A stretch of 64,000 nucleotides of DNA, from NCBI GenBank assembly GCA_041652735.1, contig JBAZGT010000009.1, positions 4,563-68,562 of the forward strand, read 5' to 3'. Of this stretch, positions 1 to 56,203 are shown one piece after another. This DNA is from Dehalococcoidales bacterium. GTDB taxonomy: Bacteria; Chloroflexota; Dehalococcoidia; Dehalococcoidales; RBG-16-60-22. Under the pieces are notes generated by a model. It saw nothing but the letters and a program-made list of their open reading frames with translations. It was not told where the DNA came from and did not search any database. A program made the position numbers and the translations under genes. Position 1 is the first letter of the stretch. Every line of letters starts with the position of its first letter.

Positions 1-794
1 CCGGCGGCATCGCCCACCGCCACTATTCTTTCACCGTAAGTGCGCGCCGGCGGCTTAAGCGGGATCGCCCCGTAGTGTAATTTAACGTCGGCGGAAGTTA
101 CTTTACCCTGCTCCGCCAGGCGTTCCAGCCACTTTTTCAGTTTTCGCCCCGCTTCCCGCCGTGCTAAAAGCCCCACTTTACCCCGGCCCGGCGTAGTAGG
201 CACCAGCCAGCCGAAGAACCCCGGCGCCATGTCCCCGAACCAGACCTCTGTCTCTTCCAGTCCCGGAGTCTCCGTTTCCACCTGCACGCCGATAACGTAG
301 TCTTTAGATACTCCCAGCCCCACCCGCTCGCTCAAGCCGGGCGTAAAGCCGGCGGCCAGTACGGCCGCCCTCCCCTGTATTGTCGATGCTTTGTTGTTAT
401 AAGAGACGGTAACGGCGGCATGCCCGCCTGTAACATTTATACCGGTTACCCGGGTCATAAACTGGTATTCCGCTCCGGCGCGCCGGGCCTGTTCCGCCAT
501 GGAAATGTCAAAAGCCGACCGGTCCAGCACCACGGCCTGCATTTCTGGCCGGTACACGCGCAGGCTGCCGCCGGAAGGTGAAAAAAGGGTGGCGCTGTTG
601 AGACGGCGGAGGATAACCCTGTCATCTATATTAAAGGTAGCCACGCACTCCATGCCGACCAGCCCCGTACAGCAGGACTTCTCCCCCGGACGGGGCTTCT
701 TTTCCAGCACCAGTACCTTGTAACCGTTTTCCGCCAGGCGGCGGGCAACCTCGCTCCCGGCTGGTCCGCCGCCGATAATTATCGCATCGTGCAT
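1..794 (-). CDS. FAD-dependent oxidoreductase, geranylgeranyl reductase family (C-terminal part runs off the window start)
   Basis: My own translation of the minus strand from the ATG at 794..792 gives MHDAIIIGGGPAGSEVARRLAENGYKVLVLEKK (GxGxxG fold) ... GAIPLKPP ... IVAVGDAAG. The frame is open to position 1. It is absent from the ORF track because there is no stop in the window. Confidence 0.7.
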   Translation of the reverse strand, partial: MHDAIIIGGGPAGSEVARRLAENGYKVLVLEKKPRPGEKSCCTGLVGMECVATFNIDDRVILRRLNSATLFSPSGGSLRVYRPEMQAVVLDRSAFDISMAEQARRAGAEYQFMTRVTGINVTGGHAAVTVSYNNKASTIQGRAAVLAAGFTPGLSERVGLGVSKDYVIGVQVETETPGLEETEVWFGDMAPGFFGWLVPTTPGRGKVGLLARREAGRKLKKWLERLAEQGKVTSADVKLHYGAIPLKPPARTYGERIVAVGDAA

Positions 795-1163
795 TTACTC
801 TCCGCCGGGTATCTTTGGGCCGCGCCGCCGGTATCTCTGGAAAAGGTAAATTCCCCCGGGGATGACCGTCAGCACGGCGATGGTAATCAAAGAGTTGGTC
901 AGGTTGATATCCAGGTCGAAAATAATGTTCAGGACTACCAGGGATAAAGTAATCAGGGCGATGGAAAAGCCGATAGACAGGGCAATCCTCTCCAGGAGGT
1001 GTATTTTTTTAAAGATAACCAGCGTCCAGGCAAATCCCGGCACGAAAAATACCAGTATCCCCCCGCCCACCGCCCGCAGGATTTGCAGCGGCTCGGAAAA
1101 CGTCATGGCGTATACCGGGCTCAAATCCATGTCACTATCCCACTTCCCCCAAGGATATCTCAC
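795..1163 (-). CDS. small integral membrane protein, unknown function
   Basis: 122-aa ORF with about 3 hydrophobic helices (ILVFFVPGFAWTLVIF, IALSIGFSIALITLSLVVL, LITIAVLTVIPGGIYLF). Its stop abuts the start of the downstream gene. Confidence 0.5.
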   Translation of the reverse strand: MRYPWGKWDSDMDLSPVYAMTFSEPLQILRAVGGGILVFFVPGFAWTLVIFKKIHLLERIALSIGFSIALITLSLVVLNIIFDLDINLTNSLITIAVLTVIPGGIYLFQRYRRRGPKIPGGE

Positions 1164-1189
1164 TCTAGTATAACATGATGGATACCGCG

Positions 1190-16228: not shown

Positions 16229-16993
16229 TCAGGGGCGCAGGAAATAGCCAAAGCCGCGGGCGGTCAACAGGTGCTGCGGATTCACCGGGTCGGTTTCTAT
16301 CTTCTGGCGCAGTGACCATATGTGGGTATCGATAGTTCTTTCGTTGCCTTCATAGTTGAATCCCCATAGCCCTTGCACGATATCGTTCCTCTGGAATATT
16401 TTCCCGGCGTTTTTCGCCAGTAATGAAAGTATGGCGGATTCTCTCGGTGTAATGGGCACTACGCTGCCGTCCTGGCGTTTTAGCTGCTTGTTGGCGGTGT
16501 CAAGCTGATATTGCCCGATTTTTATCTTGACCGGCTCATCCGGATTTTTCACGGGTGCGGCGTGGCTGGAACGCCGGAGGTGATTCCAGATGCGGGCTAA
16601 TAATTCCCGACTGTAAAAAGGCTTGGCGATAAAATCATCCGCCCCGAGTTTGAAACAGGCAATCTTGTCATCTTCAGCGGTGTCGGTGGAAATGATGATA
16701 ATGGGAATATATGATTTTTTACGCATCATTTTGCAGATTGAATGTCCGTGAATATCCGGAAGCTGGATGTCCATAATTACAGCATCGGGATAACAGGCAT
16801 CGAACAGCATTAGTCCGTCTTTACCGTTTAAAGCGGGAATTACCTTAAAGTATTCCTCGGCCAGCGTCATCTTTATCTGTGACAGTGAAGGCTCGTCGCC
16901 GTCGATACAGAGTATTTTCTTCCGCTCTATGGTCGCGCTCATACGCTTAAGACCATCCGGTCCCCGCTGTAGCTGTCCGGTGCTTCGTGCCAT
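16229..16993 (-). CDS. OmpR/PhoB-family response regulator (last gene of the pst unit)
   Basis: Receiver domain (ILCIDGDE...VIMDIQLPD...) plus a winged-helix region (LTPRESAILSLLAKNAG...IDTHIWSLRQKIE). The start may be the internal M (MSATIERKK, 16942). There is no sensor kinase gene in the window. Confidence 0.85.
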   Translation of the reverse strand: MARSTGQLQRGPDGLKRMSATIERKKILCIDGDEPSLSQIKMTLAEEYFKVIPALNGKDGLMLFDACYPDAVIMDIQLPDIHGHSICKMMRKKSYIPIIIISTDTAEDDKIACFKLGADDFIAKPFYSRELLARIWNHLRRSSHAAPVKNPDEPVKIKIGQYQLDTANKQLKRQDGSVVPITPRESAILSLLAKNAGKIFQRNDIVQGLWGFNYEGNERTIDTHIWSLRQKIETDPVNPQHLLTARGFGYFLRP

Positions 16994-23278: not shown

Positions 23279-24343
23279 TTATCTTCCCCGCCTACGGGAA
23301 ACGATTATAAATATTGTCATGCCCACGGTTACTACGGAGGCGAAGACCGCTATCATGGTATACCACGGGAAAGCCAAGACCTTTTCCTGTTCCATGTCGC
23401 CCAGCACTGCGGTGTTGCCGTAATCACGGAGCAGCCTTTCCTGCTCATCCGGCGGCAGGGTTGGCGTTGCCTCTTCTTTTAAAGGCTCCAGCACTTCAAA
23501 TTCAGCTTCCCGGCTGTCTATAAGCTCATCTACCGTATTTCCGCTAGCATCGGCGGCGGGATGGTATACGCTGGATTTCATCCTGTATTTCCCGGCCGGC
23601 AGTCCTTCCTGTAATGTCTGGGTAAAGCGGAAGGAGAACTCGGGAACGATTGAACTCGTGGTGAGTGAAGTATTGCTGGAGATTACCATTTCCCCGCTGG
23701 AATTACGTATCTCTAACGCGTTATAAGCTTTATAATGATGGTTTCCCGTGTTTTTTACGATTGTCTGAATCGGTATAGGCTCACCGGATGGCACGGTTTC
23801 CGCCATCAGGTCGGTTATCTCGCCTTGATGTGTGAGCCCGGCGTTTACCGGCGTTAAGATAACCGGGACCTTTATTCCCTGAGCGAAATCCATGCTTTCC
23901 ATGGAGCTTTCCGGGTAAGCCAGGACGTAAATAAGGGCATACAACGTGCCGTCTTCATTAAAATCATCCGGTATTTTTATGGTGAATTTGGCCTCTTGTT
24001 CCTCGCCGCCCTTCAGGGTGAAAGAGGCGTTTTCTATGTTGCTTATATAAGGAAGGGCGGTAAAGGGGGAAATATCGTGGATTTCGTCCAGTACTTCGTA
24101 GATGCCGTCCAGGTTTTGCCCGAAACCGGCTGATAAGATATTGACTATCAGCGCCGGGTCATTGGCCTTACTTGAAACGAATATCTCGTGGGTGTATGAC
24201 TGCCCGGCCTGGACATCGATATCACAGATGCCGTTGCGGACACGCAGCGACGGGCCATCCGCCTGGACCGGAATGACGCCCAGGAGCTGTAGCCCCAAGC
24301 CCAGTAATAATACGATAATTGGCGATATTATTTTCTTCATCAA
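23279..24343 (-). CDS. secreted two-module protein with C-terminal TM anchor
   Basis: 354 aa. SP LLLGLGLQLLGVIPVQA, two Ig-like modules, an acidic linker, then TM YTMIAVFASVVTVGMTIFIIV plus SRRRGR. It is the first gene after the Pho-type promoter. Confidence 0.65.
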   Translation of the reverse strand: MMKKIISPIIVLLLGLGLQLLGVIPVQADGPSLRVRNGICDIDVQAGQSYTHEIFVSSKANDPALIVNILSAGFGQNLDGIYEVLDEIHDISPFTALPYISNIENASFTLKGGEEQEAKFTIKIPDDFNEDGTLYALIYVLAYPESSMESMDFAQGIKVPVILTPVNAGLTHQGEITDLMAETVPSGEPIPIQTIVKNTGNHHYKAYNALEIRNSSGEMVISSNTSLTTSSIVPEFSFRFTQTLQEGLPAGKYRMKSSVYHPAADASGNTVDELIDSREAEFEVLEPLKEEATPTLPPDEQERLLRDYGNTAVLGDMEQEKVLAFPWYTMIAVFASVVTVGMTIFIIVSRRRGR

Positions 24344-36498: not shown

Positions 36499-37407
36499 CT
36501 ATGGTTGCGCTCTCTTTTCCACCCGGTCCACCAGAAAGGTTATCCAGCGGCTGGGCTGCGCCGTCTGGCTGAAGTCGAAATCAGGATAAGCCGTCTCGGC
36601 GCTTTCCGCAAAATACCGCCCGTCCTTAGCTTTGGCGCGGACGAAGTCCAGCATGCTCCGGAAACCGCTGGTCCGCAGGGCGTAAGGGAACAGGGAAAGT
36701 ACGTCCAGGACACGCAGGATGCCGTACTTAACGGCGGGGTAGGTGAGGGCCTTGAAGCGTTTCCCCACCCCGAAGCCGTAAAGGTGGGTCTCCATCACCC
36801 AGTGCGTGGTCAGGTTCTTGATAGCGCCTTCCAGCTTAGGGCTTTCCCGGTAGTCCAGGTACTGGCCCAGTAGCATCAGGATATTCATATCGTCCATGGG
36901 GCAGGAGCCGCCGGGGCTATCGAAGCTGTCCCCGTAGCAGTCCCAGCCGCCGCCGGACATCTGCTCGCCCAGGGCCATACGGGCGTATTTGATAACCCGG
37001 GGGTCGTCCCGGTAGCCCATTTTAGCCAGGGAAGCGATGAGAATGGCGGACATGCAGAGGTAGTTGTCCTTGACGTTGGGGGGCATGGTAAAGGAGCCGT
37101 CCCGCGACTGGTATTTGAAAATCTCTTCCACCTCCGCCTCCAGCCCCAGGTCGGCCACGGTGAGGCCGATATCCGCCAGGAAAAAGAGGTCCCAGTAAGC
37201 TTTGCCGGAATCGGTGTAATGCACCTTGCCTGTCTTTATAGCGGGGATGCCGGCGGTGTTGCCCTTGAGCCGGGCGACCAGTTTTTGAATGGAGGCGTCT
37301 TTAAGGACGGGTGAGATATCCGGCTTTAAATCCAATAGCTGGAGCTCCACGGCGTACTTGAGCCAGGCGGGGCCTTCCCGCAGCCATTCCAGGGTTTTTT
37401 TATCCAA
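36499..37407 (-). CDS. hypothetical protein (302 aa), possibly alpha/alpha-toroid (prenyltransferase/terpene-cyclase-like) fold
   Basis: Long ORF with coding-like composition. Repeats such as QSRDGSF and GGGWDC resemble the QW-type repeats of that fold. The assignment is weak. Confidence 0.55.
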   Translation of the reverse strand: MDKKTLEWLREGPAWLKYAVELQLLDLKPDISPVLKDASIQKLVARLKGNTAGIPAIKTGKVHYTDSGKAYWDLFFLADIGLTVADLGLEAEVEEIFKYQSRDGSFTMPPNVKDNYLCMSAILIASLAKMGYRDDPRVIKYARMALGEQMSGGGWDCYGDSFDSPGGSCPMDDMNILMLLGQYLDYRESPKLEGAIKNLTTHWVMETHLYGFGVGKRFKALTYPAVKYGILRVLDVLSLFPYALRTSGFRSMLDFVRAKAKDGRYFAESAETAYPDFDFSQTAQPSRWITFLVDRVEKRAQP

Positions 37408-37499: not shown

Positions 37500-37745
37500 G
37501 AAGGGGGAATAGTGGTAAAAAAATCCCTCTCGCTCTCCCTTTGACAAAGGGAGACGAAATACCCCGGATAAGTTGCTTTCAAGAAATGGATTCCCGATCA
37601 GGTCGGGAATGACAGTGGGGCAAGGTGAGGTGGAGTGCTTACCTCTCCCCCCTAGCCCCCTCCCCGCTGGCAGGGAGGGGGGCGGGCTTCAAAGATACGG
37701 AGGGGCACCCCTGCAAGGCCTTGGCGGGGGCCCCTCCGCAAGAAC
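37500..37745. repeat. cluster of REP-like hairpin elements
   Basis: TCTCCCTTT-GAC-AAAGGGAGA, ATTCCCGA-TCAG-GTCGGGAAT, CCCTCCC-CGCTGGCA-GGGAGGG (a variant of element A) and GGAGGGGC...GCCCCTCC. Confidence 0.8.
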
Positions 37746-37763
37746 GATATTTAATGAGAGCGG

Positions 37764-38375
37764 CTAATCATCAAACGCCTGCCGGACCTGCCACACCTTC
37801 CACACGTTGCCCACCAGTTCCGGCGACGGCTTTAAAGTAGGTTTACCGGGTTTCCAGCCGGAGGGAGTGGCTTCCGTGCCCTGGGAATTACGCACCAGCT
37901 GGAAGGCCTTGATTTGCCTGAGAGACTCGCTGACATTACGGCCGACCGACGGTGTCAGGACCTCAAAGCCCTGGATTTTACCGTCCGGGTCAATGATGAA
38001 CCTGCCGCGGGTTTCCACGCCGGTATCATCATCGTATATCCCGTAAAGTTTACCGATACTTCCATCCTGGTCCGACAGCATAGCGAAGGGGATGTCCTTA
38101 TTAATCATCTTCGACAGCTCGTGTTCATTCCACATCTTGTGGACGTAAATGCTGTCAACGCTGACGGACAGCACCTCAACGCCCAGGCTCTGAAGCTCAG
38201 CATGTTTTTCAGCAACCGCTGAAATTTCCGTAGCTCACACAAAGGTGAAATCTCCCGGGTAAAAACACAGCAGCACCCATTTCCCTTTGTATTCGGAAAG
38301 GCCGATGTTCATGAATTTGCCGTTGTGAAACGAGGGGGCTGTAAAATCCGGCGCCGGTTTTCCAACTTGTACCAT
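37764..38375 (-). CDS. 2-Cys-type peroxiredoxin (AhpC/Prx1 family) with in-frame TGA at the peroxidatic Cys position - candidate selenoprotein
   Basis: Track ORFs 38235..38480 and 37764..38174 share one frame and are separated only by the TGA at 38235..38237. Read-through gives GKWVLLCFYPGDFTFV-U-ATEISAVAEKHAELQSLGVEVLSVSVD. The likely start is ATG 38375 (MVQVGKPAPDF), preceded by GGGAGG. The track start at 38480 is less likely. Confidence 0.7.
38207..38224 (-). promoter_or_regulatory. SECIS-like hairpin 10 nt downstream of the in-frame UGA
   Basis: The mRNA reads UGA-GCUACGGAAA-UUUCAGC-GGUU-GCUGAAA: a 7-bp perfect stem with a GGUU apical loop. Confidence 0.55.
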
Positions 38376-38553
38376 AGCTTGTTTTACCTCCCTTTCAATT
38401 GTTGCGGCAACAGTAGCGGCCGCAATCGCCGGTTTTTTAATCGGCGGTCTCTGGCAGCCAGGCTTGAACTCTTCAGGCATAAAACAGTCCTCCTCCGTGA
38501 ATATTTTTTAATGCCGCATGTTTGGCCTATATTCAGTTATCGGGCGATGCCGT

Positions 38554-40068
38554 TTATTTTTCCGCGGTGGCTTTGGCGCGCTCTTCCGTGGTCATTTCCG
38601 CCAGGCTCTTGACCTGTTTGACGTCCAGCTTGAGACCCTTGGCGACGCGGGTGCCGTAATCGGGGTCGGATTTATAGAAGACGGCCGCCTGCCTGAGCTG
38701 GATGCGCTTTTGCGCGTTGCAGAGGTGGGTGGTGATATTGCCGATAAGGTGGTCGCGGTCAACATCCGTCATGACGCGGCGGTAAAGCTCGCCGGCCTGG
38801 AAGGCATCGTCGTTGGGATGGGTATAAGGCTGCCGCGCCGCCTGGCCGGAAACCTCGAAAGGCGGCTCGCCGGAGCCGGCGTCCGGCTCCGGCCCGCCGA
38901 AGCTGTTGGGGTAGTAGTTGGGCCCGCCGCCGCCGTTATCGCCAAAGGCCATGGGAGCGTCCCGCTGGTAGTTTTCCACTTTAGCATTCTTGGGACGGTT
39001 GATGGGTAAAAGCTGGTAGTTGGGGCCAAGGCGGTGGAGGTGGGTATCGTGATAGGAAAAGAGGCGGCCCTGGAGCAGCTTGTCCGGGGAAGCGGCGATG
39101 CCGGGGACGAAGTTGGCGGGGGAGAAAGCGGCCTGCTCCACCTCCGCGAAGTAGTTCTCCGGGTTTTTATTCAGCACCAGCCGCCCGATGGTGACAGGCT
39201 TGACGTCCGCATGGAACCAGACCTTGGTGACATCAAAAGAGTCAAAGCGGTACTTGTCCACCTGCTCCGGGGTCATGATCTGCATTTCAAGTCGCCAGGA
39301 GGGATAGTCTTTCTTCTCGATGGCCTGATGGAGGTCACGGGTGGCGTGGTCGGGGTCTTTGCCCTTCATTTCGGTGGCCTCGTCACGGGTGAGATTTTTA
39401 ATGCCCTGCTCCGTCTTGAAGTGGTATTTCACCCAGAAGTACTTGCCCCTGGCGTTGTACCACTTATAGGTATGGGAGCTATAGCCGTTCATGTGCCGGA
39501 AATTAAACGGCGTGCCGCGGTCGGAGAAGAGGATGGTAACCTGGTGGACGGACTCCGGCGTCAGGGAAAGAAAGTCCCAGAACATGGTTGCGTCCTTGAG
39601 GTTATTGCCCGGGTGGCGTTTCTGGGTGTGGATGAAGTCCGGGAACTTCAGCGGGTCGCGGATAAAGAATACCGGCGTATTGTTGCCGGTCATATCGTAG
39701 TTGCCCTCTTCCGTGTAGAACTTGAGGGCGAAGCCGCGGGGGTCGCGTTCGGCATCGGCGGAACCCCTTTCCCCGCCCACGGTGGAAAAGCGGGCGAAGA
39801 CCTCGGTGCGCTTGCCGATTTCCGAAAGGAATTTGGCCCGGGTGTACTTAGTGACATCCGCGGTCACCTCGAAGTAGCCGTGCGCGCCGGCGCCCTTGGC
39901 GTGAACGACGCGTTCCGGGATGCGCTCGCGGTCAAAGTGCCCCAGCTTTTCCAGCAGGTGGGTATCCTGCATGAGGATAGGGCCGGGATTGCCGGCGGTG
40001 CGGGAATTCTGGTCGTTGTCCACGGGCGCGCCGAAGCCGGTGGTATAGGTCTTTTTGTTTTTAGCCAT
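38554..40068 (-). CDS. monofunctional heme catalase
   Basis: [18 protein letters not shown] (distal His), RFSTVGGE, proximal Tyr region RLFSYHDTH; 504 aa. Confidence 0.93.
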
Positions 40069-40109
40069 TAGCTACCTCCCTTTATGAACCAGGTAAAACT
40101 CAGGTTATA

Positions 40110-40688
40110 CTAATAGTTTTCCGTCAGCAGCTCGTAGTAAGCCTGGGGGTGCTGGCAGGCGGGACATATCTTGGGCGGCTCGGTGCCTTCATGGATGTAG
40201 CCGCAGTTGGTGCAGTGCCAGCGCACCGGGGTCTTTCTCTTGAAGACCTCGCCGTTGACCACGTTTTTGTGCAGCTTGCGGTAGCGTTTTTCGTGGAACT
40301 CTTCCACTTCCGAGATTTCTTTAAAGGACGTGGCTATCTTGATAAAGCCTTCCGCGCGGGCGGTCTTGCCCATGTCCGCGTAAATCTGGCTCCACTCCAT
40401 CTTTTCCCCGTTGGCGGCCGCTTCCAGGTTGGCGGCGGTGTCCCCGATGACCCCGGCCGGATAAGACGCGGTGATTTCCACGTCCCCGCCCTCCAGGTAT
40501 TTAAAGAATATCTCCGCGTGCTCTTTCTCATTGCCGGCCGTCTCCGTGAAGACGTTGGCAATCTGCTCGTAGCCCTCTTTGCGGGCGGCGCTGGCAAAGA
40601 AAGTGTAGCGGTTGCGCGCCTGGGACTCCCCGGCGAACGCCGTTAAAAGGTTTTTCTCCGTCTGTGTTCCCTTGACCGATTTACTCAA
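40110..40688 (-). CDS. rbr: rubrerythrin
   Basis: Ferritin-like diiron domain (EKEHAEIF...EEFHEKRY) plus a C-terminal rubredoxin-like CTNCG...CPAC. Confidence 0.9.
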   Translation of the reverse strand: MSKSVKGTQTEKNLLTAFAGESQARNRYTFFASAARKEGYEQIANVFTETAGNEKEHAEIFFKYLEGGDVEITASYPAGVIGDTAANLEAAANGEKMEWSQIYADMGKTARAEGFIKIATSFKEISEVEEFHEKRYRKLHKNVVNGEVFKRKTPVRWHCTNCGYIHEGTEPPKICPACQHPQAYYELLTENY

Positions 40689-40699
40689 TGTTATTTCCT

Positions 40700-40713
40700 C
40701 CTAATAATTATTA
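40700..40713. promoter_or_regulatory. perfect 14-bp palindrome CTAATAATTATTAG (Fur/PerR-box-like) between perR and rbr
   Basis: Self-complementary over all 14 nt. It sits in the 27-nt gap, just upstream of the rbr SD. Confidence 0.4.
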
Positions 40714-40715
40714 GT

Positions 40716-41102
40716 TTATGGCTTGTCCCGGCAATCACGGCAGAGGCCGCGGAACTCCAGCTGGTGGTGGGTAACCTGAAAGCCCGTCCTGGCCGCCACG
40801 CGCCGGTCCAAAGCGGTATCCACCGGCTCGTCAATATCAAAGACCTTGCCGCAGCTCTCGCAGCGGAAGTGGTAATGGCTGTCCTTCTTGGCCTCGTACC
40901 GGGTGACGGTGCCCTTGAGATTAAGCTCGGCCACCAGTCCGCTTTCCCGGAGCACCTTGAGGTTACGGTAAACCGTCCCCTGGCTGATACGGGGAATTTC
41001 TTTTTTTACCGCCTCATAGACCATATCCGCGGTGGGGTGGGAGGCGGCGCGCCGCAGATAGCTTAAGATGCTTTCCCTTTGTCTGGTCTCTCTTCTCATC
41101 AT
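40716..41102 (-). CDS. Fur-family transcriptional regulator (PerR-like by context)
   Basis: Winged helix (RISQGTVYRNLKVL), HYHFRCESCGKVFD...CRDC zinc motifs; 128 aa. Confidence 0.85.
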   Translation of the reverse strand: MMRRETRQRESILSYLRRAASHPTADMVYEAVKKEIPRISQGTVYRNLKVLRESGLVAELNLKGTVTRYEAKKDSHYHFRCESCGKVFDIDEPVDTALDRRVAARTGFQVTHHQLEFRGLCRDCRDKP

Positions 41103-41326
41103 AATTAATAATAGTTCTCAATATTGATTATCCGCCACCTGAAAGAGTTTGTCAACATACGGGGCGCCAACCAGATTTATAATAAATCGTACCTCAGCCA
41201 TCAATCTGTGACTTTTCTCATATTTTGCCGCCCGCTTTTTGTTGCATGCTGTTAAATGTAATGCTTTAATGGGACTGTTACACGGCGGGGAAGACAGTGG
41301 CCGCGAATTTCTCAAGGAGGAAGTTC

Positions 41327-42514
41327 ATGACGAAACCGAGACAGATCAAGAAAGATATTTATTACGTGGGCGCGGTGGACTGGGACCGGCGCTTGTTCGA
41401 CTCCCTTATCCCCCTCCCGGACGGCACCAGCTACAATGCCTATTTAGTCAAAGGCGCGGAAAAGACGGCCCTGATAGATACGGTGAACCCCCCGATGAAG
41501 CAGGTATTGCTGGACAACCTGGACCAGCTGGGGGTTAAAAAAATCGACTACGTTATTTTCAACCACGCCGAGCCCGACCATTCCGGCTCCATCCGCGAGG
41601 TGCTGGCCAAATACCCCTCCGCCAAGGCCATCTGCACCCCCAAGTGCAAGGCGATGCTGATGGACCGCTTCATGGCGGCCGAGGACAGGTTCCAGACGGT
41701 GGAGGACGGGGACACCATAAACCTGGGGGGGCGGACGCTAAAGTTTATCCATTTGCCCTGGGTGCATTGGCCGGAGACCATGGTCACCTACCTGGAGGAA
41801 GACAAGGTGCTTTTCTCCTGTGATTTCTTCGGGTCTCACATCGCCACCACGGATATGTTCGTTAAAGACTACGGGCAGGAGCACGAGGCCGCCAAGCGGT
41901 ACTGGGCGGAAATCATGATGCCTTTCAGGTCCCAGATTCAGAAGAACCTGGAGAAAATCAAGGACTACGAGGTAGACATTATCGCCCCCAGCCACGGCCC
42001 CCTGCACGATAAACCGCAGTTCATTAAAGACGCCTATCACGGCTGGGCTTTCAACGAGCCGGGCAACATCGCCGTGATTCCCTATATCTCCATGCACGGC
42101 AGCACCCGCGCCATGGTGGCCTACCTGGCGGAAGCCCTGGCCCGCCGCGGCGTGACCGTCCGGCAGTTCGACCTGGCGGGGAGCGATATCGGCAAGCTGG
42201 CCATGGCGCTGGTGGACGCCGCCACCATTATCATCGGCACACCGACGGTGCTGACCGGGCCGCACCCCAATATTGCCCACGCGGCTTTCCTGGCTAACGC
42301 CCTCCGGCCCAAGGCCAAATTCGCCAGCATCATCGGCTCTTACGGCTGGGGCACCAGGGTGGTGGAGGCCACGGCGGCCATGATTCCCAACCTCAAGGTG
42401 GAGATTATCCCGCCCATCATTATCAAGGGCTATCCCAAGGAAGCGGACTTCCAGGCGCTGGATAAACTGGCGGAAACCATCGCCGGCAAACATAAAGAGG
42501 CCGGCCTGGTCTGA
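41327..42514 (+). CDS. flavodiiron protein (metallo-beta-lactamase-like plus flavodoxin domains), O2/NO reductase type
   Basis: NHAEPDHSG diiron motif and a C-terminal flavodoxin-like domain. The ATG at 41327 is preceded by GGAGG; the track start 41297 (GTG) is less likely. Confidence 0.9.
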   Translation: MTKPRQIKKDIYYVGAVDWDRRLFDSLIPLPDGTSYNAYLVKGAEKTALIDTVNPPMKQVLLDNLDQLGVKKIDYVIFNHAEPDHSGSIREVLAKYPSAKAICTPKCKAMLMDRFMAAEDRFQTVEDGDTINLGGRTLKFIHLPWVHWPETMVTYLEEDKVLFSCDFFGSHIATTDMFVKDYGQEHEAAKRYWAEIMMPFRSQIQKNLEKIKDYEVDIIAPSHGPLHDKPQFIKDAYHGWAFNEPGNIAVIPYISMHGSTRAMVAYLAEALARRGVTVRQFDLAGSDIGKLAMALVDAATIIIGTPTVLTGPHPNIAHAAFLANALRPKAKFASIIGSYGWGTRVVEATAAMIPNLKVEIIPPIIIKGYPKEADFQALDKLAETIAGKHKEAGLV

Positions 42515-42537
42515 TATTCCCACGAGGAAGGAGCGAC

Positions 42538-42783
42538 ATGCTAAAAATCAGCAGGGAATCCAAAATCAAGCCGGAGGAGGCCATTAAACGCGCGGTGGCT
42601 TTCTTCGGGCCGGAGGGTTACGGGCTGGAGGTCAAGGATGAAGGCGGCTGCTGCGTATCCTTCGAGGGGGGCGGCGGCGGCATAGATATCAGCGCCGCGG
42701 CCAGCCAGAAGGGGAGCGTGGTGGATATAGAGTCGCGCGAATGGGACTACCAGGCGCAGCAGTTCCTGGATAAACTAAAGTAA
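42538..42783 (+). CDS. hypothetical protein (81 aa)
   Basis: AGGAAGGAG SD and ATG start. It lies between the flavodiiron and SOD genes. I recognise no family. Confidence 0.5.
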   Translation: MLKISRESKIKPEEAIKRAVAFFGPEGYGLEVKDEGGCCVSFEGGGGGIDISAAASQKGSVVDIESREWDYQAQQFLDKLK

Positions 42784-42811
42784 TAAAAAACGGCACAAGA
42801 GGAGGCATATC

Positions 42812-43390
42812 ATGGCTTATACGGCTAAAGACTACGGCAAACTGATAGGCATGGAGGGGTTCAGCGAGACCCTGCTGAAAAATCACTTCACCCTGTACCA
42901 GGGGTATGTGACCAATACCAACAAGGTATCCGATGCGCTCAAGGCCATGCTCAAGGACGGTAAGACCGGCACCCCGGAGTACGCCGAGCTGAAGCGGCGC
43001 TTCGGCTGGGAGTTCGACGGCATGCGCCTGCACGAGCTTTATTTCGAGAATCTGGGCGGCAAGACGCCGCTGGTCAAGGGGGCAGTCCTGGGTAAGCTGA
43101 TGGAAGGCAGCTTCGGCAGCTGCGAGGCCTGGGAGCAGGACTTCCGCGCTACCGGCGCCATGCGGGGCATAGGCTGGGTGGTGCTTTACTATGACACGGC
43201 GGCCTGCGTGCTTTTCAACCAGTGGATTAACGAGCATGACGCGGGGCACCCGGCCGGCTGCCAGCCCATCCTGGTGATGGATGTCTTCGAGCACGCTTAC
43301 ATGACCGACTACGGCCTGAAGCGCGCCGACTATATCAACGCGTTTTTCAAGAACATCAACTGGAAAGCGGCGGAAAGCCGCATAAAATAG
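42812..43390 (+). CDS. Fe/Mn-family superoxide dismutase
   Basis: Metal-ligand contexts LLKNHFTLYQGYV, MRLHELYF and DVFEHAYMTDYG; 192 aa. Confidence 0.85.
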   Translation: MAYTAKDYGKLIGMEGFSETLLKNHFTLYQGYVTNTNKVSDALKAMLKDGKTGTPEYAELKRRFGWEFDGMRLHELYFENLGGKTPLVKGAVLGKLMEGSFGSCEAWEQDFRATGAMRGIGWVVLYYDTAACVLFNQWINEHDAGHPAGCQPILVMDVFEHAYMTDYGLKRADYINAFFKNINWKAAESRIK

Positions 43391-43535
43391 CGGATTCCTT
43401 TTCTTCACGGTTTTGAACAGAGAACAAGGTATGAAAAGAGCATTGTACCCGGTTTTAGCGGGTATCCTGTTGACGGCGGGGCTGCCGGCGGTTAATTCCC
43501 GCAGCGCCGCCGCCGCAGGTATTTATATTGCGCGC

Positions 43536-46500
43536 TTAGTTGTTTTTCCTCCGGGGGACCATGCTTAAAGATTCCTGAAGCTGTTTCACGCTGTACGGCT
43601 TGGCGATAACCGCCTTGAAGCCGTACTTTTTGAACTCCGACATAATGGGGTCGGTGGCATACCCGCTGGAGACGATGACGGCCGCCTTGGGGTCGATTTC
43701 CAACAGCTTTTTAATGGTCTCTTTGCCCCCCATCCCCCCGGGAATGGTGAGGTCCATGATAACGGCGTCAAAGGGGTCCTGGCGCAACATAGCCTGGCTG
43801 TATTTTTCCAGGGCTTCCCGGCCATCGGCGGAGAGCTCCACCTCATAGCCGGACAGGCTAAGCATATTTTTAAGCATTTTGCGGATGATTTCCTCATCGT
43901 CCATCACCAGCACCTTACCCCCCACCCGGCGCGAGTTAGCTATTACCATTTTCCTGCCTCCTTTTCCCGTCTTTTTAGAAGCCGGCAGATAAATGTGGAA
44001 GGTCGAACCTTCATTCTGTACGGATTCGGCGGTGATATCGCCGCCGTGATTTCTGACGATGGAATAGGCGGTGGCCAGGCCGAGCCCGCTCCCTTTCTGC
44101 TTGGTGGTAAAATAAGGCTCGAAAATCCTTATCAGGTGCTCCTGGGCGATGCCCATCCCCGAATCTTTTATCACGATATTCACATAGTCGCCGCCGGGCA
44201 GGGGCAGCCCGCTGGACCGGTTTACAGTAACATTAACGGCGGTAATTTTAAGGATACCGCCCTGGGGCATAGCTTCATCGGCGTTGATGACCAGGTTGTT
44301 GATAACCTGCCCTATTTGCCCCTCGTCCGCCTCCACCGACCATAGTTCCGGCGGGAAGGAGAGCTCAAGCCGGGCAGCGGAGCCGCGCAGGGCAAACTCG
44401 GCCGATTCTTTAACCACGTCGGCGATGTTCACCAGTTTTTTAACCGGTTTGCCGCCCCTGGCAAAGGTGAGCAACTGCTGGGTCAAATCCCTAGCGCGCA
44501 CGGCCGCCTTTTCCGCTTCGTCCAGTATTTCAAAGGCGGGGTTGGGGGAGGTTATGGTGGTTTTAGCCAGGCCGATATTCCCCATGATGCCGGTCAGCAG
44601 GTTATTGAAGTCGTGGGCGATGCCGCCGGCCAGGGTGCCGATGGACTCCAGCTTAGCCGAGCGTACCTGCTCCTGCTCCAGGACCTCGTTTCTTATGCCC
44701 AGCTCGATATCCCGCAGGGCGAAGGCGATGTCCATGGCGACCTCGGTAAACAGGGACACCTCGTCTTTATCGGTCAACAGTATGCGCTCCATCGAGGCGC
44801 AAAGCACCCCGTAAGTCTTCCCTTCAATTTCCAGGCGTATGGTCATACTGCCGATTTCCTCGAGCGCGCCTATCACCGGGCACTCCGGGCACATGGTACG
44901 CGGGTCTTCCGTCACGACTACCTGCGGCTGCCGCAAGGCCTGCTGCACGCAGCGGGGGAATATGCCGCGCTGGAAGGCTTTGATTAATGCGGGGAAGTTG
45001 CCGGTATTATTAGCGGCCCAGGTCACCGGCTGCCCGGCATCGTCAAACAAGACAATCCAGGCGCTGGCGAAGCTGTGGTTTTCCACCAGGTTATCACAGA
45101 TGCCCCGGATAAGCTTATCACGGTTTTTCTCCCGGGTTATCAGCTGGTTCACATTGCGGATGGAGCGCAGCGCCAGGTTGAGATGTTGAATCCTTTCCTC
45201 CGCCTGCTTGCGTTCAGTGATATCCAGGGAGAGGATAAAGACCCCCTCCGGCACCGGCTGCAAATCAAGCGCGAACCACCCCTTGTCGCCGTCCGGGAAG
45301 AAGAACTCATTTTCCATCCGGTGAGCGGTGCCTTTTTCCATGCACTCCCGCAGGCGGGGAAACAGGCCCGTTTTTTCAATGCCCGGGAAGACTTCCATCA
45401 TGGTATGGCCCAGGAGGTCTTCCCTTTTCAGGCGGCTCTGCCGTACCGCGGCATCATTGACATAGATATAGCGGTAGTCCCGCCCGATAATCTGGCAGCC
45501 TTCCATCATGTTATCCAGCGTGCTCCGGTAGCGCTCCCCGCTTTCCCGCAGTAATTCCTGCGCCTCTTTACGCTCGGTGATATTAGAAAAGACGGACACC
45601 ACCCCGAGTGCATTACCCTGCGCATCTTTAATCGTGGAGACGGAGATCAGTACGGATAATTCCACGCCGTCTTTCCGGTGATGAACAGCCTCACCCTGCC
45701 AGTAGCCGTCCTTTATCAGCCGTTTCTCAATATCGGCAATAGTGCTGTTGGAGAACACCGGTTTAACAAGTTTCATGAGGTTTTTGCCCAATACTTCATC
45801 CTCGCGCCAGCCGTAAATTTCTTCGGCGGCTTTATTCCAGCTGATCAGCTTGAAAGCCATATCACAGGAGACAATTGCGTCCGATACGTTCTCAATAAGG
45901 CTGGCATGATAGCGGATGCTTTCTTCCAGCCGCCGGCGTTCGGTAATATCCTCAATCATCGCCAGGAAACCCAGCGGCTGGCCGGAGCTGTCACGGAGCA
46001 GCGTGGCCGTGACACTGCCCCAAATGGTGTCTCCATTTTTCCTAATATAGCGTTTTTCCGTTTTGTAGTATGTTAATTCACCGGTTACCAGCTTCTGCAG
46101 GTTGGGAACATTTGCGGCGATGTCTTCCGGGAGCGAAATATCCTTGAAAGTCATGGACATAAGTTCTGCCTCAGAATAGCCGAACATCTGGCAGAAACGG
46201 CTGTTCACCATGGTGTATCGATATTCCAGGTTGGAAAGAATGATACCGAGAGGTCCCTCCTGAAAGATGCGGCGGAAACGCTCTTCACTCTGGTGGATGG
46301 CAATCTCCGCCTGCTTGCGTTCCGTAATATTGCGGCAGACACAGAAAATCAGCTTTTGCCCCGCAAATACCGCGCCGTTGGTGCTGATTTCCACGTCATA
46401 AATGCTGCCGTCTTTGCGGCGGTGCCGTGTTTCAAAATGGTCGCCGGCTTCATCCACGGTACTTAGCATCTCTAGCACCTGCTCGCGGGGAAGGAGGAAT

Positions 46501-48026
46501 TCCCAGTCCCACACGGTAAGCTCCCGGAGCTCTTCCGGGGAGTAGCCGAGCATTTCCGCGAAGCGCCGGTTGGCTTCATATACCTTGCCCTGCTGGTCCA
46601 GAACGACGATGCCGTCCCGGGACTGCTCGATGAGAATACGCCGGCGGGTGATTTCATCGGCCAGTTTTTCTTCTATATGCCGGCGTTCGGTAACGTCCTG
46701 CCCCACCGCCAGCAACCCCACCACTTCTCCATCCAGGCCTTTGAGTGTCTTGTCATACCACTCGATATCTTTTTCATGCCCGTCTTTGGTGATGATTTTG
46801 TTAATCACGCCCCGCGTCCGGACATCATCTATGGCCCGGTCAAACAAACGCTTGATAGAGCTGCGCGCTTCTTCCGGAATAAAGACATCAAACCAGAAGC
46901 GGCCCTTTACCTCCTCCAGTTTATAGCCGGATATTTCCTGCATATACGGGTTGAAGGTACGGATGCGGCCGTCCGGCTCCAGCACCAGCATGATGACCTG
47001 GGCGGTATCAAACATGCTCTGGTTGAAGTCCCGCTGGAAAACGAGTGCTTCCTCCGCTTGTTTACGCTCGGTGATATCACGGATAATAGCCATATCCGCC
47101 TTTTCACCCTTATAGTTGAAAATGCTGGCGCTTACTTCCGCGTAGACCCTGCGGCCGCCTTTGGCCATTAAAATAAGCTCGTATCTTTCCGGCACTTTCT
47201 CGCCGGCCACGCGGCGGCGGTAGATATCCGCCACTTTATCCCTGTTTTCCGGCGCGACGAAATCAAGGAAGGACCTGCCGGCAATCTCCTCCGCGGTATA
47301 ATCGCTGATATCCATCATCTTGGAGTTGAAGTAAGTGACCCGGCCGTTCTGGATGAAGATAATACCGTCATTGCCGTGTTCCACCAGGCTGTAGTATTTT
47401 TCCTCGCTCTCCATGAGCGCTTCCCGGGCCCGCTTACACTCGGTAATGTCAAGGTACATGGCCAGGTACTGACGCGCGCCGCCCCAGAGTATTTCCTTGC
47501 GGAATACCTGGAGATTTCTCACGGCGCCGTCCGGACGCCGGATATCTATTTCATATTCCGGGGGGAGGTGTTCGCCCTGCTGCCGCCGCTTTTTCCTGAT
47601 GAGGTGCCCGGCATAGCTTTCCGGGGTGTACAGCCGCTCTTTGGGCACGGCTTCCAGCTCTGCGGCGGTGGCGTAGCCGCAGATATCGAGGATAGCCTGG
47701 TTGGCATAGATGAGGCGGCCGTCTTCCGTGACGATGCGCACGCCCAGGGGACAGCCGTCAATGGAGTTGCGGAAGTTTTGTTCTGACGCCGCATAGGCTA
47801 CTGCCATTTGGCGTGAGTCCGGCAGGGCGCTGCCGCCGGCCCGCCCCGGTTCACTGGATTCAGAGGCGGCGGCGTGCCCGGAAGTAATTTTATCACCATC
47901 AACACCGCGCAGCCGGTTAAGCTGCGCTTCAGTCTCCCGCAGCTTTTGATGCAGCTCTTTATAGGTAGGTCTTTTTCCGCTCATCGGACACCCCCATTGT
48001 ACCGCGGGTGATGTTACCGGCATCAA
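43536..48026 (-). CDS. hybrid sensor histidine kinase with about 7 PAS/PAC modules, a GAF-like module, HisKA, HATPase and C-terminal receiver
   Basis: Seven (D/N)(I/V)TE(R/C)(K/R) PAC-end motifs, H-box GIAHDFNNLL, G-boxes DSGMGI and GSGLGLA, and a receiver VLVMDDEE...VIMDLTIPG. Confidence 0.9.
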   Translation of the reverse strand: MMPVTSPAVQWGCPMSGKRPTYKELHQKLRETEAQLNRLRGVDGDKITSGHAAASESSEPGRAGGSALPDSRQMAVAYAASEQNFRNSIDGCPLGVRIVTEDGRLIYANQAILDICGYATAAELEAVPKERLYTPESYAGHLIRKKRRQQGEHLPPEYEIDIRRPDGAVRNLQVFRKEILWGGARQYLAMYLDITECKRAREALMESEEKYYSLVEHGNDGIIFIQNGRVTYFNSKMMDISDYTAEEIAGRSFLDFVAPENRDKVADIYRRRVAGEKVPERYELILMAKGGRRVYAEVSASIFNYKGEKADMAIIRDITERKQAEEALVFQRDFNQSMFDTAQVIMLVLEPDGRIRTFNPYMQEISGYKLEEVKGRFWFDVFIPEEARSSIKRLFDRAIDDVRTRGVINKIITKDGHEKDIEWYDKTLKGLDGEVVGLLAVGQDVTERRHIEEKLADEITRRRILIEQSRDGIVVLDQQGKVYEANRRFAEMLGYSPEELRELTVWDWEFLLPREQVLEMLSTVDEAGDHFETRHRRKDGSIYDVEISTNGAVFAGQKLIFCVCRNITERKQAEIAIHQSEERFRRIFQEGPLGIILSNLEYRYTMVNSRFCQMFGYSEAELMSMTFKDISLPEDIAANVPNLQKLVTGELTYYKTEKRYIRKNGDTIWGSVTATLLRDSSGQPLGFLAMIEDITERRRLEESIRYHASLIENVSDAIVSCDMAFKLISWNKAAEEIYGWREDEVLGKNLMKLVKPVFSNSTIADIEKRLIKDGYWQGEAVHHRKDGVELSVLISVSTIKDAQGNALGVVSVFSNITERKEAQELLRESGERYRSTLDNMMEGCQIIGRDYRYIYVNDAAVRQSRLKREDLLGHTMMEVFPGIEKTGLFPRLRECMEKGTAHRMENEFFFPDGDKGWFALDLQPVPEGVFILSLDITERKQAEERIQHLNLALRSIRNVNQLITREKNRDKLIRGICDNLVENHSFASAWIVLFDDAGQPVTWAANNTGNFPALIKAFQRGIFPRCVQQALRQPQVVVTEDPRTMCPECPVIGALEEIGSMTIRLEIEGKTYGVLCASMERILLTDKDEVSLFTEVAMDIAFALRDIELGIRNEVLEQEQVRSAKLESIGTLAGGIAHDFNNLLTGIMGNIGLAKTTITSPNPAFEILDEAEKAAVRARDLTQQLLTFARGGKPVKKLVNIADVVKESAEFALRGSAARLELSFPPELWSVEADEGQIGQVINNLVINADEAMPQGGILKITAVNVTVNRSSGLPLPGGDYVNIVIKDSGMGIAQEHLIRIFEPYFTTKQKGSGLGLATAYSIVRNHGGDITAESVQNEGSTFHIYLPASKKTGKGGRKMVIANSRRVGGKVLVMDDEEIIRKMLKNMLSLSGYEVELSADGREALEKYSQAMLRQDPFDAVIMDLTIPGGMGGKETIKKLLEIDPKAAVIVSSGYATDPIMSEFKKYGFKAVIAKPYSVKQLQESLSMVPRRKNN

Positions 48027-55357: not shown

Positions 55358-56203
55358 ATGCGTGTAATCAATGCCGCGGATATTACCGGGGCCGTTGCCG
55401 ATCTCTTCAGGCAGGCCAACTACGAGCTGGGCGAGGATGTCCTGGCCGCGCTGGAAAAGGCGCGCCGCGAGGAAGAGTCCCCGGCCGGACGCGAGGCTTT
55501 GAACGCCATCCTGGAGAACGCCCGCGCAGCTTCCGCAGATAAAATCCCGCTCTGTCAGGACTGCGGCGCCGCCGTGGTCTTCCTGGAGATAGGGCAGGAC
55601 GTCCATGTAGCGGGCGGCGACCTTGCTGCCGCCATTAATGAAGGCGTGCGGCAGGCTTACCAGGAAGGCTACCTCCGGAAGTCGATGGTCGACCGCCCCT
55701 TTTCCGACCGTAAGAATACCGGGGATAACACCCCCGCCGTCATCCATACGGATATCGTCCCCGGCGATAAGCTCAAGATTACCGTGCTGCCCAAGGGCGG
55801 CGGCGCGGAAAATATGGCCAGGCTTGGTATGCTGCTGCCGGCTGCCGGCAGAAAGGGCGTGGTAGACTTTGTGGTCAACGCCGTGAGCGAGGCGTGGAGC
55901 AACCCCTGTCCCCCCATAATCATCGGTGTTGGCATCGGCGGCACGGCGGAAAAAGCCATGCTGCTGGCCAAGCACGCCCTGGTGAGAAAAGTAGGGGAAC
56001 CCGGCCCCGATAAAGAAAACGCCGATCTCGAACGGGAGATTTTGCATAAAGTGAATGACCTGGGCATCGGCCCGATGGGTTACGGCGGACGGGTTACCGC
56101 CCTCGCCGTGCATGTGGAGAGCTTTCCCGCCCACCTTACCGCCCTGCCCGTGGCGGTTAATTTACAGTGCCATTCCGCAAGGCACCGGGAGATAGTGCTG
56201 TGA
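55358..56203 (+). CDS. class I (Fe-S) fumarate/tartrate hydratase, alpha subunit
   Basis: PLCQDCG cluster motif, GGGAENM, 281 aa. Confidence 0.88.
   Translation: MRVINAADITGAVADLFRQANYELGEDVLAALEKARREEESPAGREALNAILENARAASADKIPLCQDCGAAVVFLEIGQDVHVAGGDLAAAINEGVRQAYQEGYLRKSMVDRPFSDRKNTGDNTPAVIHTDIVPGDKLKITVLPKGGGAENMARLGMLLPAAGRKGVVDFVVNAVSEAWSNPCPPIIIGVGIGGTAEKAMLLAKHALVRKVGEPGPDKENADLEREILHKVNDLGIGPMGYGGRVTALAVHVESFPAHLTALPVAVNLQCHSARHREIVL

Follow-up and report, generated by a model that had tools for sequence, protein, structure and literature searches.

Does the one in-frame TGA in a peroxiredoxin gene of a Dehalococcoidales bacterium terminate a broken gene, or is it read as selenocysteine (Sec)? 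The gene lies on the minus strand of a 64,000-nucleotide stretch of contig JBAZGT010000009.1 (assembly GCA_041652735.1), which we call the window, and an earlier note made from the sequence of this stretch had proposed it as a candidate selenoprotein. Our analysis supports that proposal. The predicted product matches the PrxU family, the TGA is present in all 80 genomic relatives that we compared, a hairpin just downstream of the TGA covaries among orthologues, the part of the gene beyond the TGA has a low ratio of nonsynonymous to synonymous substitution rates (dN/dS), and TGA ends other genes of the window. Taken together, these comparisons make it very probable that the locus is a real and intact Sec-encoding prxU gene.

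One reading frame crossed by a single TGA

The prxU frame extends over 38480..37764 on the minus strand and has 239 codons with its stop (TAG, 37766..37764) or 238 codons including Sec82. Its only internal stop is the TGA at 38237..38235 (minus strand), and it contains neither frameshifts nor further stops. The two mechanically defined open reading frames (ORFs) on either side, 38480..38235 (81 residues) and 38174..37764 (136 residues), share the same frame, and reading the sequence and frames bore out the earlier description of one gene split by one TGA. Read through, the product contains ...LLCFYPGDFTFV[U]ATEISAVAEKH..., or, with the codon shown, ...KWVLLCFYPGDFTFV[UGA]ATEISAVAEKH.... The UGA codon (38235..38237, minus strand) occupies the peroxidatic position, which is residue 82 of the long form of the protein and residue 47 of a putative short form discussed below, and its context, P75-G-D-F-T79-F-V-U82, fits the pattern PxxxTxxU. 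Both the sequence and the homologue columns agree with the earlier statement that the stop falls on the catalytic Cys of FYPGDFTFV-[UGA]-ATE.

Could the TGA simply be a sequencing or assembly error in a TGC or TGT Cys codon? TGA is one base from either codon, and nothing more specific speaks for such an error. Against it, an independent entry in the Logan assemblies (SRR18595300) is 100% identical to window positions 37589..44634 (7,046 nucleotides), TGA included, with the reservation that the two assemblies possibly share their read sets, and TGA is found in every close relative. We regard the probability of an error as negligible. In the same Logan assembly the gene is called as fragments of 81 and 136 residues, just as the earlier note had expected of gene callers.

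The product belongs to the PrxU family

By its sequence, the product is PrxU, a peroxiredoxin of the Prx1/AhpC type, and it displays every feature of that family that could be tested. In profile searches run with Cys substituted for the TGA stop, the NCBIfam model NF040737 ("peroxi_PrxU", cut-off 270 bits) scored 395.7 bits with the long form (238 residues) and 385.7 bits with the short core (203 residues), and the match spanned profile positions 2-232 of 233. Pfam recognized AhpC-TSA (E = 1.7e-38) and 1-cysPrx_C. By contrast with the PrxU score, the AhpC model TIGR03137 gave 188 bits, under its cut-off of 272 bits; the protein also lacks the VCP motif of AhpC, and no ahpF-like gene is adjacent. 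The Prx-SUH model NF045827 gave 19 bits against a cut-off of 298 bits.

The closest solved structures are Prx1/AhpC-type enzymes (E ~1e-44), to which identity is ~40-45% as judged by eye from two alignments and Foldseek. An AlphaFold2 (AF2) model of a natural relative with Cys in place of Sec (a Cys-form) has a template-modeling score of ~0.9 to 5zte, 7kj1, and 1n8j. Thr79 and the Arg of the R-G-R-F segment align with their counterparts in solved peroxiredoxins, and R161, G162, R163, and F164 are invariant in an alignment of 44 diverse PrxU family members that includes Cys-forms. The protein thus resembles 2-Cys Prx1/AhpC enzymes (Salmonella AhpC, 1n8j/4ma9; human Prx2, 7kj1; Amphibacillus AhpC, 1we0) in fold, in the motif FYPxDFTFV-[C/U]-xTE, and in the conserved Arg. 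It differs from them in having Sec for the peroxidatic Cys, ATP for VCP, and no adjacent ahpF. The segment in the place of the C-terminal resolving-Cys motif, EATPSGW (37854..37874, minus strand), contains no Cys; in alignments to 4fh8 and 1we0 it reads E-A-T-P-S-G-W where the canonical enzymes have E-V-C-P-A-G-W, in accord with the replacement noted earlier. TPSGW or TPAGW occurs throughout the PrxU family, which has no C-terminal resolving Cys. A further difference from 2-Cys Prx1/AhpC enzymes is that the PrxU family carries one additional invariant Cys in an N-terminal extension and another ten residues before Sec. The latter is Cys72 of the window protein (LLCFYPGDFTFVU; 38265..38267, minus strand); in typical Prx1/AhpC enzymes, position -10 from the peroxidatic residue is Phe or Val.

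The closest characterized counterpart is PrxU of Eubacterium (Peptoclostridium) acidaminophilum (Sohling et al., 2001, cited in PMC13188914), which likewise has a peroxidatic Sec in PxxxTxxU, no C-terminal resolving Cys, and a Sec insertion sequence (SECIS) directly after the UGA. Nothing essential distinguishes the two proteins. The settings differ, in that the relatives of our host are labelled Dehalococcoidia rather than being amino-acid-fermenting Firmicutes, and the window gene belongs to an operon with genes for a PerR-like regulator, rubrerythrin, and catalase. Purified E. acidaminophilum PrxU is reportedly a protein of ~22 kDa and 203 residues, which equals the length of the short form; the window gene and most of its orthologues encode a 35-residue N-terminal extension beyond this 203-residue form. 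Other peroxiredoxin-fold families also use Sec, namely the Prx-like thiol:disulfide oxidoreductases (UxxC) and Prx-SUH (CxxU), and share with the window protein a thioredoxin/peroxiredoxin fold and a Sec in the redox motif, but the window protein has TxxU and is a member of a different family.

Peroxiredoxin with TxxU is listed among experimentally verified prokaryotic selenoproteins, with citation of Sohling et al., 2001 (PMC13188914; PMC1088965), and the NCBI annotation pipeline PGAP names such genes prxU automatically, as thioredoxin-dependent peroxiredoxin (PMC10924467; PMC4046663). PrxU is thus an already known family, experimentally since 2001, in selenoproteome surveys since 2005, and by automatic naming at NCBI. 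The family is established together with its Sec codon and SECIS, and so the prxU locus itself opens no new question.

Conservation of the UGA and selection beyond it

Several lines of evidence bear on whether the TGA is a functional codon. First, we compared the best 80 of at least 587 relatives among species-representative genomes (70-92% identity; loci L001-L080). TGA is present at the same codon within FYPGDFTFV*ATE in 80/80 loci, whose record titles include Dehalococcoidia, Bacillota, Thermodesulfobacteriota/Desulfobacterales, Nitrospirota, Spirochaetota, Caldithrix, Cloacimonadota, Anaerolineae, and others. The earlier note had called Sec-containing peroxiredoxins known but rare; known they are, but less rare than this suggests, given that the best 80 of these relatives all carry TGA.

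Second, over the 150 codons after the UGA, dN/dS is 0.026 in comparison with L005, the best match among the listed loci (92% identity; a Dehalococcoidia metagenome-assembled genome, MAG, with a 2.3-Mb scaffold), and 0.016 in comparison with L001, with dS above 1.7. These low ratios past the UGA indicate that the downstream part has been translated throughout a long divergence. Assorted disruptions in close relatives had been named beforehand as the sign of decay; instead, TGA is kept in all 80 relatives, and the downstream dN/dS is ~0.02.

These results bear directly on the possibility that the locus is a pseudogene, that is, a Cys-peroxiredoxin killed by a TGC/TGT-to-TGA nonsense mutation and followed by a fortuitous hairpin. 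Gene callers do split the frame into two fragments, and Sec machinery is not seen in the window, as such a history would have it. An identical TGA in all 80 relatives, labelled as many phyla, a dN/dS of 0.016-0.026 at saturated dS, a frame clear of frameshifts and additional stops, and the covariation of the hairpin described below all argue the other way, and we judge a pseudogene extremely unlikely.

Third, the Sec column was read in the top 120 protein-database matches (P0001-P0120), where it holds 'W' in 108, Cys in ~10, and Gly in one. For P0001, which corresponds to locus L082, the codon read at the DNA level is TGA, though the protein is stored with W; the 'W' at the Sec column is therefore a gene-caller artefact (code 4 applied to short contigs). 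W at the catalytic position looks like the systematic mistranslation of a selenoprotein family. Selenoproteins are classically recognized by Sec/Cys pairing at a catalytic position (PMC1088965), and the orthologue column, which the earlier note had proposed to check for Cys- or Sec-containing forms, contains both, as Sec (TGA) in 80/80 genomic relatives and as Cys in ~10/120 proteins. Several of the W-bearing database relatives carry the name 'alkyl hydroperoxide reductase subunit AhpC'.

Fourth, TGA terminates five of 30 domain-supported window genes with their C-terminal domains complete, among them a response regulator (16229..16993) and a fumarate hydratase (55358..56203). A six-frame scan of the window found no gene besides prxU with an internal in-frame TGA; the other cases fell at frame ends or in non-coding frames. 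Hence UGA serves as an ordinary stop codon in this genome. This usage decides against an alternative genetic code in which UGA stands for Trp or Gly and the residue is not Sec. The many database relatives translated with W would favour such a code, but those W residues arise from gene calling on short contigs, the TGA-terminated genes have complete C-terminal Pfam domains, no other window gene contains an internal TGA, and Trp or Gly as the peroxidatic residue would abolish catalysis. With UGA refuted as a Trp or Gly codon by stop-codon usage in the window, this explanation retains hardly any probability.

For annotation, prxU is best entered as one selenoprotein coding sequence (transl_except Sec) rather than as two fragments, a pseudogene, or a Trp-containing "AhpC". 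Public protein collections contain many mistranslated members of the family, to judge from the share of W-bearing sequences among the top 120 matches.

A covarying hairpin follows the UGA

A SECIS-like hairpin, UUUCAGC-GGUU-GCUGAAA, is encoded at 38207..38224 (minus strand), with its 5' arm at 38224..38218, its loop at 38217..38214, and its 3' arm at 38213..38207. As the earlier note had described, it forms a perfect 7-bp stem with a 4-nucleotide loop and begins 10 nucleotides past the UGA. It is also the centre of the minimum-free-energy fold. A lower stem around the hairpin in the single-sequence fold was dropped, as it is not conserved in the alignment.

From an alignment of 81 sequences, RNAalifold recovered the identical 7-bp helix de novo. 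Standard pairing is present in 98.4% of cells, compared with 41-72% in controls in which the partners were slid by 1-3 columns, and the covariation score is 0.249, compared with 0.092 in shuffles and at most 0.106 in slid controls; none of 500 shuffles matched the observed pairing percentage or covariation score. Cells altered on both sides of a pair number 49, with 12.5 expected, and affect three of the seven pairs. Pair 18-27, which joins the third base of the Ser codon to the third base of the second Ala codon, is AU in 50 sequences, GC in 28, UA in 2, and GU in 1, and is never unpaired. Pair 15-30, which joins the third bases of the Ile/Val and Glu codons, is UA in 57, CG in 12, AU in 4, and GC in 2, with 6 unpaired. 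The compensatory changes at both pairs fall on synonymous third positions. The loop has the form R-G-U-N, and its G22 and U23 are invariant in the 81 sequences. In four Cys-form DNAs, 4, 5, 4, and 6 of the seven pairs are retained; this loss of pairs runs in the direction that would be expected of genes with a Cys codon, in a small sample (n = 4).

Published criteria (PMC1088965) place a bacterial SECIS in the coding sequence, directly after the UGA, and give it a small apical loop with a G; the hairpin fits this description in its position 3' of the UGA, its place in the coding region, and its small G-bearing loop. Like SECIS elements of the E. coli fdhF/fdnG type, it directly follows the UGA as a coding-region hairpin and carries G in a small apical loop, in this case as an invariant G-U. 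The minimal SECIS of E. coli fdhF reportedly has a spacing of ~11 nucleotides from UGA to stem, to which the 10 nucleotides in the window are close. Unlike the E. coli element, the window hairpin is short and has neither a bulged U nor a conserved lower stem.

Weighing Sec decoding in this organism

A handful of observations count against a Sec-encoding gene with a functional SECIS. The folding energy of the hairpin is unremarkable by itself (z = -0.47; 66 nucleotides folded). Because the stem lies in the conserved S-A-V-A-E-K peptide, four of the seven pairs are invariable and carry no information, and one of the four Cys-form DNAs examined still has 6/7 pairs. No Rfam family matches the hairpin: searches of the entire window at gathering thresholds, and of 38120..38300 with E values as high as 10, gave no SECIS or tRNA-Sec and just chance snoRNA-like matches. 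Finally, no selA, selB, selD, or tRNA-Sec was found in the 64-kb window by ARAGORN and by Pfam and NCBIfam searches of 41 window ORFs. The ARAGORN search of the window yielded not a single tRNA, and the sole AIRS-domain protein among the scanned window ORFs is the FGAM synthase PurL. Rfam seems to contain no model of such a hairpin. The covariance-model check suggested in the earlier note thus gave no SECIS family from Rfam; from the orthologues, RNAalifold found a helix, together with covariation.

That no Sec machinery was seen in the window also bears on a further explanation, in which the lineage recently lost Sec decoding and the intact gene is either not expressed at full length or is served by low-level UGA suppression by another tRNA. 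Sec utilisation is patchy among bacteria (PMC9312934; PMC13188914), which together with the failure to observe Sec machinery favours a loss. After a loss, however, one would not expect UGA, hairpin, and downstream frame all to be intact despite saturated synonymous divergence, and the operon that contains the gene looks functional and has a terminator-like hairpin of its own. We consider a recent loss very unlikely. Rather, we infer that the organism decodes UGA as Sec, because this codon, the hairpin, and the reading frame beyond them have been maintained over the long term. Among the relatives, a Sediminispirochaetaceae MAG (L048) has a tRNA-SeC gene with anticodon TCA (153..242, minus strand) that adjoins its prxU orthologue (572..1180). 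As a Sec-encoding gene, prxU would indicate that its host, which has its closest relatives among records labelled Dehalococcoidia, uses selenium.

By analogy with the general bacterial mechanism, the hairpin would recruit the SelB.GTP.Sec-tRNA(Sec) complex through its G-U loop as the ribosome meets the UGA, and the codon at 38237..38235 would be decoded as Sec instead of terminating translation. The catalytic chemistry is presumably that of related peroxidases, in which case the selenolate of PxxxTxxU, with Thr79 and the Arg of T-R-G-R-F, would reduce peroxide and be converted to a selenenic acid. A thiol would then recycle the enzyme, as is suggested by analogy and by the name thioredoxin-dependent that NCBI gives the family.

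An N-terminal extension and a possible second start

The prxU frame runs ~35 codons upstream of the Met of the peroxiredoxin domain in nearly all 80 loci; the exceptions are L041, at a contig end, and L073, which lacks the extension. In the window the extension spans 38373..38480 (minus strand) and opens with the conserved sequence M-P-E-E-F-K-P-G-C-x-R-P, within which the motif G-C-Q-R-P lies at 38445..38459 (minus strand) and the Cys9 codon at 38456..38454. Cys9 is invariant in the 44-sequence alignment, Cys-forms included, and so is the Cys at -10 from Sec. Selection on the extension acts at the peptide level, as its codons vary synonymously (GGC/GGA/GGT, TGC/TGT, AGA/CGG/CGA, CCN). The linker after the motif varies in sequence and length, such that the whole extension has 32-41 codons, yet no stop occurs in it. 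The PrxU profile NF040737 already spans the extension.

Two translation starts can be recognized. The long form has a Shine-Dalgarno sequence, GGAGGAGG (38489..38496, minus strand), 8 nucleotides upstream of its ATG (38480..38478), and at least 5/6 nucleotides of AGGAGG are found at the long-form start of 62/78 orthologues. A second Shine-Dalgarno sequence, AAGGGAGGT (38386..38394, minus strand), lies inside the gene, with 11 nucleotides between its GGAGG core (38391..38387) and an internal ATG, that of Met36 (38373..38375, minus strand). This ATG is the start of the peroxiredoxin domain and of the putative 203-residue short isoform, and the AhpC-TSA domain begins 3 residues later. At least 5/6 nucleotides of the internal AGGAGG are present in 76/81 sequences, 3-13 nucleotides before the internal ATG, with a perfect hexamer in 62; the background of AGGAGG in the same genes is 1.7%. 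It can be argued that this internal site, a near-perfect AAGGAGG, is selected at the nucleotide level, because the motif is not tied to one reading frame but appears in two.

Together, the conserved extension and the internal Shine-Dalgarno sequence suggest that the gene might produce two isoforms, a long one of 238 residues with a disordered Cys-bearing tether and a short one of 203 residues. As a C-terminal resolving Cys is lacking throughout the family, its role might fall to the tethered N-terminal Cys or to the Cys at -10. We hold this arrangement as a whole to be doubtful. Cys9 or Cys72 may form a selenenylsulfide with Sec that is then reduced by thioredoxin. In the AF2 model of the natural Cys-form monomer, residues 1-40 have predicted local confidence (pLDDT) values of 36-52, which fits a flexible tether and is otherwise uninformative. 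A literature search found no description of a dual-start or N-terminal Cys architecture for PrxU, and the combination of a dual start and an invariant N-terminal Cys may be new. If true, it could explain how a Prx1-type enzyme is recycled without a C-terminal resolving Cys.

A putative peroxide-defence operon

prxU is the last gene of a perR-rubrerythrin-catalase-prxU cluster on the minus strand. Upstream of the first gene is a promoter-like sequence, TTGACA-17-GATAAT (41127..41155, minus strand), which matches the consensus at 11/12 positions, a consensus match only. The first gene (40716..41102, minus strand) encodes a Fur-family regulator by Pfam FUR, whose best NCBIfam matches are PerR models, all under their cut-offs. 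It is followed by rubrerythrin (40110..40688, minus strand; Pfam, and NF045767 with 295 bits against a cut-off of 200) and, immediately upstream of prxU, by catalase (38554..40068, minus strand; Pfam Catalase and Catalase-rel, and NF008422 with E = 1.6e-146, under the model cut-off). A G+C-rich hairpin followed by UCUUUG (37696..37740, minus strand) resembles a terminator at the operon end; its energy is -35.5 kcal/mol (z = -3.15), and 0/200 shuffles were as stable. Divergent to the perR cluster are genes for a flavodiiron-type protein (41297..42514) and an Fe/Mn superoxide dismutase (42812..43390), and the whole forms a compact oxidative-stress island over window positions 37696..43390.

The neighbourhood is partly shared with relatives. 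L005 has the flanking flavodiiron, PerR, rubrerythrin, and downstream genes in the same order except for catalase, and in L001 catalase adjoins prxU. From the perR-rubrerythrin-catalase cluster and the divergent flavodiiron and superoxide dismutase genes, prxU belongs to oxidative-stress defence. We infer from gene order that PerR controls the operon, which would place a Sec-peroxidase beside catalase and rubrerythrin in a putative PerR-controlled peroxide-defence operon.

Directly downstream of prxU, an ORF of 302 residues (36499..37407, minus strand) was matched by neither Pfam nor NCBIfam models; part of it is conserved in L005, in the corresponding place, with 72% identity over 123 aligned residues. 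On its other side, the oxidative-stress island adjoins a gene for a hybrid sensor kinase of 1,496 residues (43536..48026, minus strand) with at least 5-6 PAS domains, GAF, HisKA/HATPase, and a receiver domain. Elsewhere in the window, the segment 21535..27019 (minus strand) encodes two large CARDB-repeat proteins of 575 and 828 residues and an unassigned 354-residue ORF (23279..24343), and these adjoin genes for PBP-type solute-binding proteins, ABC permeases, and an ABC ATPase.

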